From IMG/VR virus record IMGVR_UViG_3300023181_000027, positions 35,473 through 99,472 of that record: a stretch of DNA of 64,000 nt. One strand, written 5' to 3'. The notes beneath the pieces are model-generated. The model was given only the letters and a program-made list of their open reading frames with translations. It did not search any database and was not told where the DNA came from. Position numbers and translations under genes: made by a program. Of this stretch, positions 35,210 through 41,323 are shown one piece after another. This stretch comes from a virus (Duplodnaviria > Heunggongvirae > Uroviricota > Caudoviricetes). Every line of letters begins with the position of its first letter. The first letter of the stretch is position 1.

Positions 35210-36669
35210 TATATTACTTTTAATAGTTTACCAATTAACAATTTGGATGGTTTCTTAAGGTCTTTAAGCTCCTGTATCCACTCTTCATACACTTTATGTA
35301 TAGCCTGGCCATACGTTATATCAGTATATTGTTTTGGTATAGGTTCTACAGCAACAGTTGCTTTACCTGGGTAGTCTGTCAAACCTTTAGCGCTTGACAA
35401 AAACGTATCTCTCAGTTGTAGCCAGTCTATACCTTCCTGAGACCTAAAATCATCTATTGTGATTGTTTTGTACGAACCTATACCAGGGACAGTATTCTCG
35501 AACTTACCTTTCATACGTTCGGCTAACATTTCATCAGCCAGTTTATTGAAATCTACACCTGTAGTTGATTCCAAGTCTTTAACTAAACCTGCGAGCATTG
35601 GTCTATCTTTAAATCTCTCATCTATTCGGGCTTGATATAAGCCCGATCTAGCCGCTAGAAACTCCGATTTACTGAGTTTCTGCGCGTCAGAGATATCCTT
35701 GATTAGATCACCATAAACTTTACCTGGAGTTCCCACCTTAACACTGCCATTACTAAAGATTGTAGTTCTTTCACTTGCTGGCGTACCATTACTACCATCT
35801 GTTGTAAATATAGTGATCATTGGCTCACCCTTGCCATTTGATGTCTCAACGTCGAATAGAACTTCCTTTTCACTAGGAAGTTCATTGGGTACGAAATGAA
35901 AAGTGACGCTCTGTTTTAAAATACTAACAACGGTGTTCCTAACTAATGTGCGGTCACCACCATAAATAACCCAACCAATATTCACTCCATTATAACTAAC
36001 TCTACCTGTACAGTAGTTACTATTGGCACCTCTTGCACCACTCCATCTAATATCACCATTGGTCTGTAATCGATCAATATGTCGATCCATTAAACCAATC
36101 TCAAACCAATCGCCAGTAGTGCCAATTTCAGGGTACTTCTCAATTAGTAAATCAAGGTAATACTCACGCGGATCAAAGAATACCATTGACCAATACAATT
36201 GACCAGCCTCTTTTAACTTAATCTTTTTCAGATCGTAAGTGTTGTCCTTATGATACACTTGAGAAGAACTGTTCCAATTAGGATTTGCTCGTTCAAGTCG
36301 ACCACATATTGAATTGTTATGCCGAATAGTACCTTCTATAGTAGGACCCTGAACAATCCACTTTAAGGCACCGCTACGTTCAAGTGCTGTAATTTCATCT
36401 TTGAAATCTATACTGGGTTTATACTGTGCACCCACCATACTTATACCGCGCTCTTGACACACGCGAGCAATCATACTGCGTTTTTCCCGATCTTCCTTCA
36501 CCAGTAAGAAATAATACCAGATATTAAATAAGTGCTGAGGATCCATATCTTCAAGATATTGGACTTTACCATCGTAGCTCTTCCAAGCTGTTTTCTTTTG
36601 TGGCATCTCTAATATTTTAAAATAAATGTAATTGTCTGCTTTCATACTCTCCGAACCAAGTGTAGACAA
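35209..36669 (-). CDS. hypothetical protein (486 aa). The true start may be an internal ATG at 36645 or 36606
   Basis: Long track ORF with a Gly/Thr/Ser-rich middle region. No motif recognised. Confidence 0.5.
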   Translation of the reverse strand: MSTLGSESMKADNYIYFKILEMPQKKTAWKSYDGKVQYLEDMDPQHLFNIWYYFLLVKEDREKRSMIARVCQERGISMVGAQYKPSIDFKDEITALERSGALKWIVQGPTIEGTIRHNNSICGRLERANPNWNSSSQVYHKDNTYDLKKIKLKEAGQLYWSMVFFDPREYYLDLLIEKYPEIGTTGDWFEIGLMDRHIDRLQTNGDIRWSGARGANSNYCTGRVSYNGVNIGWVIYGGDRTLVRNTVVSILKQSVTFHFVPNELPSEKEVLFDVETSNGKGEPMITIFTTDGSNGTPASERTTIFSNGSVKVGTPGKVYGDLIKDISDAQKLSKSEFLAARSGLYQARIDERFKDRPMLAGLVKDLESTTGVDFNKLADEMLAERMKGKFENTVPGIGSYKTITIDDFRSQEGIDWLQLRDTFLSSAKGLTDYPGKATVAVEPIPKQYTDITYGQAIHKVYEEWIQELKDLKKPSKLLIGKLLKVI

Positions 36670-39525: not shown

Positions 39526-40071
39526 TTACAATATTAATCCTAACGCCTGCAGACCTTCAGCATGTTTCTCTGTAGTCATATCATAGTAAGTGTCTCCACT
39601 AATCTCCTTGAAGGCTTTAGCGTGAAACACTTCATCGTGATAGATCTCTTTGAAGATAGCCTGTATGTCTTTAGGCGCATTGTCATCCTCCATGATGATC
39701 TTAATTCTTTCCAACCTCATCTCTTCTGCGTGAGCAGCGATACCTGCCACATAAAGACCATCACCTTCTGGAGCAGCAGTTAACGCGGCCGGCCAATATC
39801 TCTCTTCTTTGTTGAGTATTTTGGGTGTCACCCCACGCATAATGAGAAGACTTCCAATCCAGGCTGCGTGACGATCTTCGTCATTTGCAATTCTACTTGC
39901 TAACTTATAAGCTGTTGACGTGGGCTCAAAGTGAACGACAATTAACTCTCTAATTCTGGTGGCAGCAGTAGCTTCCCCATGATATTGATTCTTTAACCAA
40001 CCAATAATCAGGTTGGGATCGTCTTTAATACCGTCCCACCATTGTTGCGGTGTTTTCATCTCTTTTTGCAT
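39526..40071 (-). CDS. ferritin-like di-iron carboxylate protein (MiaE/rubrerythrin-like superfamily)
   Basis: Paired ExxH motifs: DEDRHAAWI and DEVFHAKAF, plus additional Glu sites EATAATRIREL and AHAEEMRLE. Confidence 0.4.
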   Translation of the reverse strand: MQKEMKTPQQWWDGIKDDPNLIIGWLKNQYHGEATAATRIRELIVVHFEPTSTAYKLASRIANDEDRHAAWIGSLLIMRGVTPKILNKEERYWPAALTAAPEGDGLYVAGIAAHAEEMRLERIKIIMEDDNAPKDIQAIFKEIYHDEVFHAKAFKEISGDTYYDMTTEKHAEGLQALGLIL

Positions 40072-40100: not shown

Positions 40101-40236
40101 TGGATGTAGGGAGACTCGAACTCCCGTCCCTGCAGCTACTCATACCTACCACTCAAGTACATCATCGTGTTTCTCCCACACGTGGGAGAGTATGGTCTCA
40201 AACACCGTCCGCTCTCATCCTCTGAGCTATACACCC
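40101..40236 (-). tRNA. tRNA gene with an insert of about 60 nt (136 nt) containing the palindromic hairpin UCUCCCACGUGUGGGAGA
   Basis: Acceptor GGGUGUA/UACAUCC, D-arm UAGCUCAGAGGAUGAGAGC, T-arm GGGAG-UUCGAGU-CUCCC. The intervening region is long. Confidence 0.45.
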
Positions 40237-40324: not shown

Positions 40325-41323
40325 TTAAGCGGCTATTCCTAGCCTACCTATTAATAGAAGCGAAGGTTTCTCCTCACTGCTCGGAATGCTTGGTTTAACC
40401 CCGAAAGCACTGTCCACAGCTTTTATCAAGTCCGCTAAGTTCATAGAACCAGCATTCTTTATGATATCCAACACTTCTTTGTGTGATTTTAAAACTGGCA
40501 TAAATAGTCCTTTTGCTTCATCAGCATAGACCACACTGTGCGGCCATTGTTTAGGTAGAGCTATCTCTTTGCAGAGATTCGGTCTCCCAGAAATGCGTTC
40601 ACTCCGCATATGCTGTCTGTTCTTCCACTCAGCTATTTCCTTATCTCGCCTTGCCAAATCAGCCTCCTTCTTCAACGCTACAAGATCTTCCAGTGGTGTA
40701 GAAAATGTACTACGGCTTTCAATCACGTTATTCCATTGTTTTCTAGCTTCACCCCACTTGATATCTGGTCTGGCGTTAGGATCAGTGATTAGATCTTCAG
40801 TGTTAACCTTTGCGCCAGTACCATTCCAACCTTTCGGAACTTCAATAGGAACTTCAATTTTCACGTCTTTCCAATCAGAAAAAGCTTTAATTGGTAAGAT
40901 GCTATTAAGCGAGTATCTGCTCCATCTAGTAGCGTAAGCTTCACCGTAGTAACGTACCCAATCATTCTTATCAGATAGTACCAGTGAATTTAGCATACTC
41001 CACTCTAACTTATTACTAACTGCAGAGGTTAATGCTATAAAGACACCTGCTTTGGGGTGAGCCTCGCGGAATGTTTTAATAGTATCATATTGCCCTCTTC
41101 CAATATTAAATACAAAATCAGCACCCATGATACTATTGCTCTGTTTAGGTGGAACAATAAATAGAGTATCTGCATCGGTTATAGGCGTGTTAGTAAACTT
41201 AGTACCTTTCGGATATTCAAATACATCAACATCATACTTAGCAAGTTCTTCACGGGCCACTCGAGAAAGTGTTTCATCTGCTATATTTGAGTGGCTCAGA
41301 TATACTTTCCTTTTCCCACTCAT
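40325..41323 (-). CDS. hypothetical protein (332 aa) with a possible TIR/SLOG-like Rossmann N-terminus
   Basis: The N-terminus KVYLSHSNIADE...DVDVFEY resembles TIR-like starts. The assignment is weak. Confidence 0.3.
   Translation of the reverse strand: MSGKRKVYLSHSNIADETLSRVAREELAKYDVDVFEYPKGTKFTNTPITDADTLFIVPPKQSNSIMGADFVFNIGRGQYDTIKTFREAHPKAGVFIALTSAVSNKLEWSMLNSLVLSDKNDWVRYYGEAYATRWSRYSLNSILPIKAFSDWKDVKIEVPIEVPKGWNGTGAKVNTEDLITDPNARPDIKWGEARKQWNNVIESRSTFSTPLEDLVALKKEADLARRDKEIAEWKNRQHMRSERISGRPNLCKEIALPKQWPHSVVYADEAKGLFMPVLKSHKEVLDIIKNAGSMNLADLIKAVDSAFGVKPSIPSSEEKPSLLLIGRLGIAA

Follow-up and report, generated by a model that had tools for sequence, protein, structure and literature searches.

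The window analyzed here comprises 64,000 nucleotides of the IMG/VR virus record IMGVR_UViG_3300023181_000027, which is assigned to the Caudoviricetes (positions 35,473 to 99,472 of the record). We followed up an over-long tRNA-like gene on its minus strand, which occupies a 253-nt gap between two open reading frames (ORFs) of the same strand (39526-40071 and 40325-41323). An original prediction made from the sequence had described it as a tRNA gene of 136 nt with canonical acceptor, D and T arms and an insert of about 60 nt. This description was confirmed, and c[40101..40236] represents a real tRNA-like gene with a distinct insert. While ARAGORN did not call the gene at default settings, it called a tRNA at exactly these boundaries when introns were allowed. 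A local search of the region with the Rfam tRNA model (RF00005) yielded 36.8 bits vs. a gathering score of 29 (E = 1.9e-6), and the gene was absent from the Rfam scan of the whole window at the gathering threshold with default filters. The model aligned the acceptor, D and T arms and left 79 nt unaligned where the anticodon arm is expected. In addition, the bases for the tertiary pairs U8-A14 and G15-C48 and the G18G19/UUCGA elements are readable in the sequence. The gene shows the score, the 7-bp acceptor stem, the D arm and the UUCRA-type T loop of a tRNA, and its length of 136 nt lies outside the usual range of ~70-95 nt. The surplus amounts to 62-66 nt over a class I tRNA, which makes the predicted insert size a fair one, or to ~42-46 nt if a hairpin contained in the insert is counted as a variable arm. 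The parts of the gene are listed in the table.

Table. Parts of the 136-nt tRNA-like gene, with window coordinates and the evidence for each assignment.
Feature	Position	Strand	Evidence
Whole tRNA-like gene, 136 nt	40101..40236	minus	ARAGORN with introns allowed; local Rfam tRNA search
Acceptor stem, 5' strand GGGUGUA	40230..40236	minus	7/7 pairs with UACAUCC (40102-40108), including G3.U70; Rfam model match
D arm GCUC-AGAGGAUGA-GAGC	40211..40227	minus	4-bp stem; Rfam model and minimum-free-energy fold
Candidate anticodon arm ACGGU-GUUUGAG-ACCAU (gene positions 29-45); anticodon UUG at 40199-40201	40192..40208	minus	Hairpin scan of the middle region
Variable-region surplus, 66 nt (gene positions 46-111)	40126..40191	minus	Lies between anticodon arm and T stem
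7-bp hairpin UCUCCCA-CGUG-UGGGAGA (gene positions 48-65)	40172..40189	minus	7 Watson-Crick pairs, 4-nt loop
3' part of insert, 46 nt, without convincing structure	40126..40171	minus	Whole-gene fold vs. shuffles
T arm GGGAG-UUCGAGU-CUCCC	40109..40125	minus	Rfam model and fold
Acceptor 3' strand UACAUCC and discriminator A; CCA not encoded	40101..40108	minus	Sequence reading; Rfam model match

The position of the insert depends on the assignment of the anticodon arm. Scanning the 85 nt of the middle region for 5-bp stems whose 7-nt loop has U as its second and a purine as its sixth base returned the candidate arm of the table as the sole match. It begins 2 nt past the D stem, and an arm of such quality at that offset occurs in 2.1% of shuffles. 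Four of its five stem pairs are formed, U33 and A37 are present, positions 32 and 38 are both occupied by G, and the Rfam model leaves the arm unaligned. When every possible segment was deleted by brute force and the products were scored with ARAGORN, all top solutions retained this arm with its UUG anticodon. Because it directly follows the D arm, all 66 surplus nucleotides fall into the variable region. An uninterrupted 72-nt tRNA-Gln(UUG) gene is present on a phage-like contig of 133,865 bp (L014), 14 nt upstream of a gene for a rubrerythrin-like protein which is 56% identical to that of the window, and the target gene is found in the same place, 30 nt upstream of the window's rubrerythrin-like gene. 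The genes of the window favor CAA for glutamine (284 CAA vs. 155 CAG), and a tRNA with a UUG anticodon fits the usual logic of phage tRNAs.

Within the surplus, the 7-bp hairpin starts 2 nt beyond the anticodon stem. When the 85 nt of the middle region were shuffled with dinucleotides preserved, only 1.8% of the shuffles contained a perfect hairpin of at least 7 bp, and 0.6% had one of at least 6 bp starting 0-3 nt past the arm. Its strands CUCCC/GGGAG are those of the T stem (GGGAG/CUCCC) in swapped order. The hairpin had been predicted to be built around a CACGUG palindrome, of which the 7 bp and the presence of CACGUG hold, but CACGUG is off the hairpin center by one base, and the 18-mer is only a near-palindrome with 2 mismatches to its own reverse complement. 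CACGTG was not distinctive as a special DNA site in the window, where CACGTGT occurs 14 times vs. 5.7 expected, and scans for promoters and terminators gave background levels. Two segments of the insert are complementary to the tRNA body, namely AAACAC (40167-40172, its first base being the last of the hairpin) to GUGUUU of the anticodon arm, and GAUGUA (40158-40163) to the 3' acceptor strand. A role of this complementarity as a guide was dropped because its significance is only marginal (P = 0.04 for 5-mers and P = 0.14 for 6-mers).

The hairpin is placed like the variable arm of a class II tRNA, a stem-loop that starts 1-2 nt past the anticodon stem and projects from the variable pocket. In class II tRNAs, this arm is followed by 1-2 nt before the T stem, whereas 46 nt separate hairpin and T stem in the target gene. 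The variable region of class II tRNAs typically comprises somewhat over 10 nt (PMC7609411), as compared to the 66 nt observed here together with a UUG anticodon. Reading the gene as an ordinary tRNA with a long variable arm, the alternative already named in the original prediction, thus leaves 42-46 nt unexplained even with the hairpin as the arm. If the 42 nt past the hairpin are removed, a 94-nt class II-shaped tRNA results, which obtained the top ARAGORN score of 122.3. Judged by its geometry, the hairpin may mark an extra arm that belongs to the tRNA itself and not an intron.

Other tRNA genes in the neighborhood are interrupted by inserts of a different type, which are recognized by the hairpin motif AGUGA-N5-UCACUUA. 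Five exact copies of this motif occur on the minus strand, carried by the tRNA genes t38, t39, t44 and t51 and by a tRNA-like RNA at c39165-39278. As predicted, none of the five is located in the target gene, and local alignments of the target insert with four of the AGUGA inserts gave P values of 0.68-0.99. Removing exactly 39 nt at 28/29 of t38 (c38353-38465) restores a perfect tRNA-Lys(UUU), and removing exactly 39 nt at 29/30 of t44 (c44119-44229) a perfect tRNA-Gly(UCC). Both inserts sit in the 5' strand of the anticodon stem and consist of 7 nt, an 18-nt hairpin unit and 14 nt. Because these exact deletions in the stem restore perfect tRNAs, the Gln/Asn isotypes and anticodon-loop introns assigned to t38 and t44 by ARAGORN were rejected as wrong. 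The target insert and the AGUGA inserts are alike in occurring in the same genome and on the same strand, in being short (42-66 nt vs. 35-40 nt), in containing one short hairpin each and in interrupting a tRNA-shaped gene. They differ in that they share neither a motif nor sequence similarity and in their positions, since the AGUGA inserts are found in the D region or in the stem or loop of the anticodon arm (in both cleanly resolved cases, in the stem) and the target insert in the variable region. Moreover, the AGUGA hairpin has five copies and shows covariation in another contig (L258), whereas the target hairpin is unique. The proposal of two independent insertion elements or intron subfamilies stands as far as the insert differs in sequence and position, but an insertion element or an intron subfamily is not supported, the insert being single-copy and without relatives and its removal an assumption. 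A search of IMG/VR with the AGUGA pattern gave four chance matches, none of them in a tRNA. Taking these comparisons together with the anticodon assignment, we regard it as likely that the target gene is a tRNA(UUG) gene with an insert in the variable region that is unrelated to the AGUGA inserts.

Some further features of the AGUGA-bearing genes were recorded. The genes t38 and t51 (c51364-51475) are paralogous with 77% identity, and the sequence UUAGAAG of their inserts is complementary to the Lys anticodon loop (CUUUUAA/CUUUUGG). Pairing between intron and anticodon is typical of protein-spliced tRNA introns. The tRNA-like RNA at c39165-39278 is ~110 nt long and combines the fifth AGUGA hairpin with a 7-bp acceptor stem, a 4-bp T arm, an N-ACCA end and a conserved CUGAUAA loop, with no recognizable D arm. 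Its homologue at L258:17-133 has kept the structure with five compensatory pairs, three in the acceptor stem and two in the hairpin, which has changed from AGUGAG/CUCACU to AGUGGU/ACCACU.

A search for further copies in the genome and in related phages had been suggested with the original prediction. The sole other copy is on a 10,357-bp contig from another sample (L003, SRR7968062), which is 100% identical to the window over 10,357 bp, target gene included. This identity in a second sequencing run excludes an assembly artefact. Within the window the insert is single-copy, and no similarity to it was detected elsewhere in the 263 kb of window and related loci, the latter having been obtained through the rubrerythrin-like protein only. 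Searching IMG/VR with a pattern of the tRNA body and with a 20-mer of the hairpin did not retrieve the insert, a search of metagenomes with a 21-mer of the D arm had no result, and neither the body pattern in IMG/VR nor the D-arm 21-mer in metagenomes revealed an intron-less allele. The 18-mer of the hairpin gave at least 120 matches each in metagenome and genome collections, all in unrelated contexts. Among the 245 occurrences listed, longer GC-rich repeats with CCC...GGG flanks account for 146 and a conserved actinobacterial sequence for ~34, and no occurrence falls inside a tRNA.

Only one collinear relative was found (L006), which carries a 125-nt interrupted tRNA-like gene at the equivalent position, and the similarity between its insert and the target insert is not significant (P = 0.60). 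The closest relative by the neighboring protein (L004, 85% identity) has no tRNA at the equivalent position. For the neighboring proteins of 332, 486 and 298 amino acids, no relatives were found beyond the same phage, and no DNA match was obtained among GenBank phages. A neighboring protein matches proteins of Ralstonia phage RsoM2USA and Acidovorax phage ACP17 (42-44% identity), and in phage ACP17 no tRNA is present beside the homologous gene. We rejected a mobile insertion element, either similar to miniature inverted-repeat transposable elements or repetitive extragenic palindromes or of the homing type, because the insert is unique in the window and absent from IMG/VR and because none of the 245 listed 18-mer matches is in a tRNA. 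From these searches, the target insert appears to be an orphan, for which the terms "element" and "subfamily" are unsupported. As a separate observation, the sequence TCTCCCACGTGTGGGAGA (loci L017-L256) forms the core of a widespread repeat of GC-rich bacteria, which typically has CCCC...GGGG on its flanks and continues into sequences such as YYGGGGKGAGGGC. This repeat is present in many copies per genome in some assemblies of Anaerolineae, Latescibacterota and Gemmatimonas, with no tie to tRNAs.

We compared the insert with the known types of tRNA introns. Archaeal non-canonical introns are short and protein-spliced and may lie outside position 37/38, including in stems and in the variable region. 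A bulge-helix-bulge intron with two 3-nt bulges and a 4-bp helix was rejected for the target gene, which contains none of these motifs vs. a mean of 3.6 in shuffles; in further differences from the archaeal systems, the gene belongs to a bacterial virus and no EndA-like protein is recognized in the window. Group I introns are ~200 nt or longer, reside in the anticodon loop and are detected by Rfam models. Although they likewise interrupt bacterial tRNA genes, the target insert has only 66 nt and lies outside the loop, and we rejected a group I intron or small ribozyme because there was no Rfam match at the gathering threshold or in local searches up to E = 10. The local searches gave no significant match other than tRNA, the next one being permuted transfer-messenger RNA (tmRNA) with 9.9 bits (E = 5). 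We also rejected the tRNA-like domain of a tmRNA, for which the G3.U70 pair is present, because a D stem and an anticodon arm exist and the tmRNA match is not significant. RNA ligase, polynucleotide kinase, RtcB and EndA were not recognized by Pfam/PHROGs among the 86 ORFs of the window, most of the ORFs in the tRNA region having no family and ~70 kb of the contig lying outside the window. The search for a single deletion that produces a clean class I tRNA, which succeeded for t38 and t44, gave no clean junction in the target gene.

As the best explanation, which we put forward tentatively and at somewhat less than an even chance, we propose a phage tRNA(UUG) gene whose variable region has received a single-copy, lineage-specific insertion of 62-66 nt, of which at least the hairpin is retained. 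That the insert is kept rather than excised is much less certain than the anatomy of the gene. The gene would be transcribed together with its minus-strand neighbors, and its ends would probably be made by RNase P, 3'-end processing and CCA-adding enzymes of the host, because the acceptor/T-arm half is intact. At least the hairpin may then not be an intron but form an oversized variable arm of the mature RNA, an option we prefer with low confidence because the variable pocket is the site where an extra arm is naturally tolerated. The insert lacks the AGUGA hairpin and would presumably not be handled by whatever recognizes it in the neighboring genes.

Several observations weigh against this explanation. 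The anticodon arm is weak, with G at positions 32 and 38, a C.A mismatch and a 2-nt instead of a 1-nt spacer to the D stem, and the UUG anticodon belongs to none of the class II isotypes (Leu, Ser, Tyr, Sec). The acceptor stem with G1-C72, G3.U70 and A73 is unlike those of the uninterrupted Gln tRNAs of L014 and a further contig (L015), which have U1-A72. G3.U70, A73 and G1-C72 form the alanine identity set and would favor charging with alanine; if the RNA is expressed and charged by alanyl-tRNA synthetase (AlaRS), its UUG anticodon would misread CAA. A variable region of 66 nt is not known to us from any natural tRNA. The whole gene does not fold more stably than its shuffles (z = -0.48), and the 46 nt past the hairpin, for which no structure is detectable, would lie open to nucleases. 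Since 45 of 150 shuffled inserts attained the ARAGORN score of the class II shape when optimized in the same way, we rejected this score as an argument for a variable arm. The copy in L003 is identical and adds no sequence variation. Finally, t38 and t44 become perfect only after the exact removal of 39 nt, which means that an excision activity probably exists in the system and could act on the target gene as well.

This last point leads to the reading of the insert as a true intron, either of 62-66 nt or of the 42-46 nt past the hairpin, which would be cut by a protein endonuclease and ligated by an RNA ligase of phage or host, and which would add a second recognition mode beside the AGUGA hairpins. 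We consider this possible, if somewhat doubtful. Apart from the restored t38 and t44, which argue for excision and ligation in the system, it agrees with the C before the T stem, which could form the G15-C48 pair after removal, with the complementarity of AAACAC to the anticodon loop side, where protein-spliced introns often carry a complement, and with RNA-repair-type genes in phages sharing the neighboring gene (Thg1-like in L016, PNK3P-like in L259). However, no splice junction is definable, since no single deletion improves the arms and many score alike. Bulge-helix-bulge motif, AGUGA hairpin, ribozyme and group I match are all lacking, the ligating and cutting enzymes named above were not recognized among the window ORFs, the complementarity to the tRNA body is marginal, and the IMG/VR and metagenome searches contained no intron-less allele. 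ARAGORN itself places a canonical anticodon-loop intron in the gene by taking out 44 nt after loop position 39/40, with GUGGU as the 3' stem strand and a 22-nt variable arm. In favor of this placement, besides the program output, ACCAU (41-45) forms a perfect helix with GUGGU (85-89) around 39 nt, the insert length of t38 and t44. The anticodon stem formed in this way is poor, containing two G.U pairs and a G.G mismatch, pairing in the proposed variable arm is poor as well, and the score of 104.8 is below the 114-122 of the solutions with a contiguous arm; we therefore rejected this placement, which is highly improbable.

A disabled or decaying tRNA gene, in which an insertion or recombination scar in the variable region is tolerated, appears improbable. 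Such a history would account for the imperfect anticodon arm (C.A, G32/G38 and an extra base at position 26), for the orphan insert and for the missing tRNA at the same position in L004, and the nearby sequence at c39399-39520 with its two T-arm-like hairpins resembles tRNA debris. Uniform decay, however, would not spare the flawless acceptor (7/7), D (4/4) and T (5/5) stems and the tertiary bases, and the hairpin is perfect and well placed. The identity of the sequence in two samples also speaks against decay, though it is uninformative on selection. Still less probable, in our judgement quite improbable, is a non-decoding tRNA-shaped RNA, whose top half would serve as a processing or stability scaffold or as a decoy for tRNA-directed nucleases of the host, with the insert as payload. 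The phage group does possess several RNAs with acceptor stem, T arm and an aberrant lower half (c39165-39278 and three more in L258), a tmRNA is encoded in the window and an 81-nt RNA confined to the tRNA-like domain in L001, and according to textbook knowledge G3.U70 and A73 would permit charging by AlaRS whatever the anticodon. But the target gene has a normal D arm, a plausible anticodon arm and a codon-appropriate anticodon, an ordinary tRNA-Gln occupies the equivalent position in L014, and the insert has no conserved or significantly stable structure beyond the hairpin.

A broader proposal is that the insert represents a second class of protein-dependent phage tRNA introns, located in the variable region, neither of the group I nor of the bulge-helix-bulge type, and removed by an unknown cut-and-ligate pathway shared with the AGUGA inserts, which we regard as rather unlikely. 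To our knowledge, tRNA genes of bacteria and their viruses are interrupted only by self-splicing group I introns. If the inserts described here are removed, phage or host must own an undescribed pathway for cutting and ligating tRNAs, and if the shared-pathway reading is true, bacterial viruses have tRNA splicing with more than one recognition mode. If the target insert is kept, in contrast, it would be the largest natural tRNA variable region known to us. The target gene remains one unreplicated case and is useful chiefly for constraining models for the processing of these phage tRNAs.

The closest described counterparts are the "enigmatic" tRNA introns of the Lak megaphages, which are short and not of group I and whose removal mechanism is not known (Devoto et al. 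2019, PMC6784885). Compared by description only, both cases concern phage tRNA genes which exceed the length accepted by bacterial tRNA finders and are detected only with introns allowed. The Lak phages differ by their GC content of 26%, genetic code 15 and genomes of 540 kb, as compared to 39% GC, standard stop codons and a 135-kb contig here, and the position of their inserts comes from a tRNA scan in eukaryote mode, whereas the target insert is in the variable region. In the literature, we found no other description of short non-group I inserts in phage tRNA genes, and what is new here is a different, rare phage lineage with many insert-bearing tRNA genes and heterogeneous inserts. A hairpin on the variable arm is compatible with function in engineered tRNAs, since those with hairpin aptamers on the tip of the variable arm still translate in E. 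coli (Mukai 2020, PMC7590224). These tRNAs likewise carry a foreign hairpin on the variable arm, but they are designed allo-tRNA constructs with the hairpin in place of the arm's tip, whereas the target RNA has 46 unstructured nucleotides in addition.

The surroundings of the gene contain further unusual tRNA-like genes. Between 32 and 55 kb of the window, the minus strand encodes a tmRNA, a single plain tRNA-Met and no fewer than seven tRNA-like genes whose length is abnormal. The tmRNA of ~500 nt is located at c52678-53177 (Rfam 78.8 bits), and for an 81-nt RNA at L001:1430-1510, on a distant phage contig of 200 kb, the tmRNA match is confined to the tRNA-like domain (56 bits). The sequence at c39399-39520, which lies between t39 and the rubrerythrin-like gene, has a tRNA-like 5' end (GCGGAUG UA GCUC...), a weak match to the tmRNA model (12.9 bits) and the T-arm-like hairpins GUGG-UUCGAUU-CCAC and GGG-UUCGAUU-CCC. 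Two tRNAs with long variable arms (c54892-54980 and L006:12561-12653) were assigned 8-nt anticodon loops with the four-base "anticodons" AGGG and AAUG by ARAGORN. A tRNA of 85-87 nt at c49487-49573 (Rfam 50.9 bits) has 23 nt in the anticodon region vs. 11 in the model, and ARAGORN assigned no anticodon to it; its surplus of 12 nt may be located in the 3' strand of the anticodon stem. Other contigs sharing the rubrerythrin-like gene contain over-long tRNA-like genes of 112-142 nt and RNAs consisting of acceptor stem and T arm only, with unrelated inserts (L014:3081-3222, L014:5761-5872, L015:18410-18538 and L258:780-1100), and interrupted or remodelled tRNA-like genes thus recur in these phages. 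The RNA-repair-type genes mentioned above code for a Thg1-like protein (L016:632-1504) and a PNK3P-like kinase/phosphatase (L259:11762-12552) and are located near the rubrerythrin-like gene; none was recognized in the window. Thg1-like proteins add nucleotides in the 3'-5' direction and act in tRNA repair.

The window is part of a metagenomic contig of 134,778 bp (ENA ERZ27228488, k141_348780). Nearly all ORFs of the window are on the minus strand, tightly packed and terminated by standard stop codons. The proteins recognized include an RIIA-like protein, a nicotinamide phosphoribosyltransferase, Ter proteins, PTH2, DnaB, a primase and a NUDIX protein, and the DNA polymerase is 38% identical to those of crAss-like phages. 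The ORFs at 587-35209 comprise a PTH2-type peptidyl-tRNA hydrolase, a TerD/TerC/TerF-like set, a ribose-phosphate pyrophosphokinase and the nicotinamide phosphoribosyltransferase, and a QueD-like PTPS is encoded among the ORFs at 38-62 kb.

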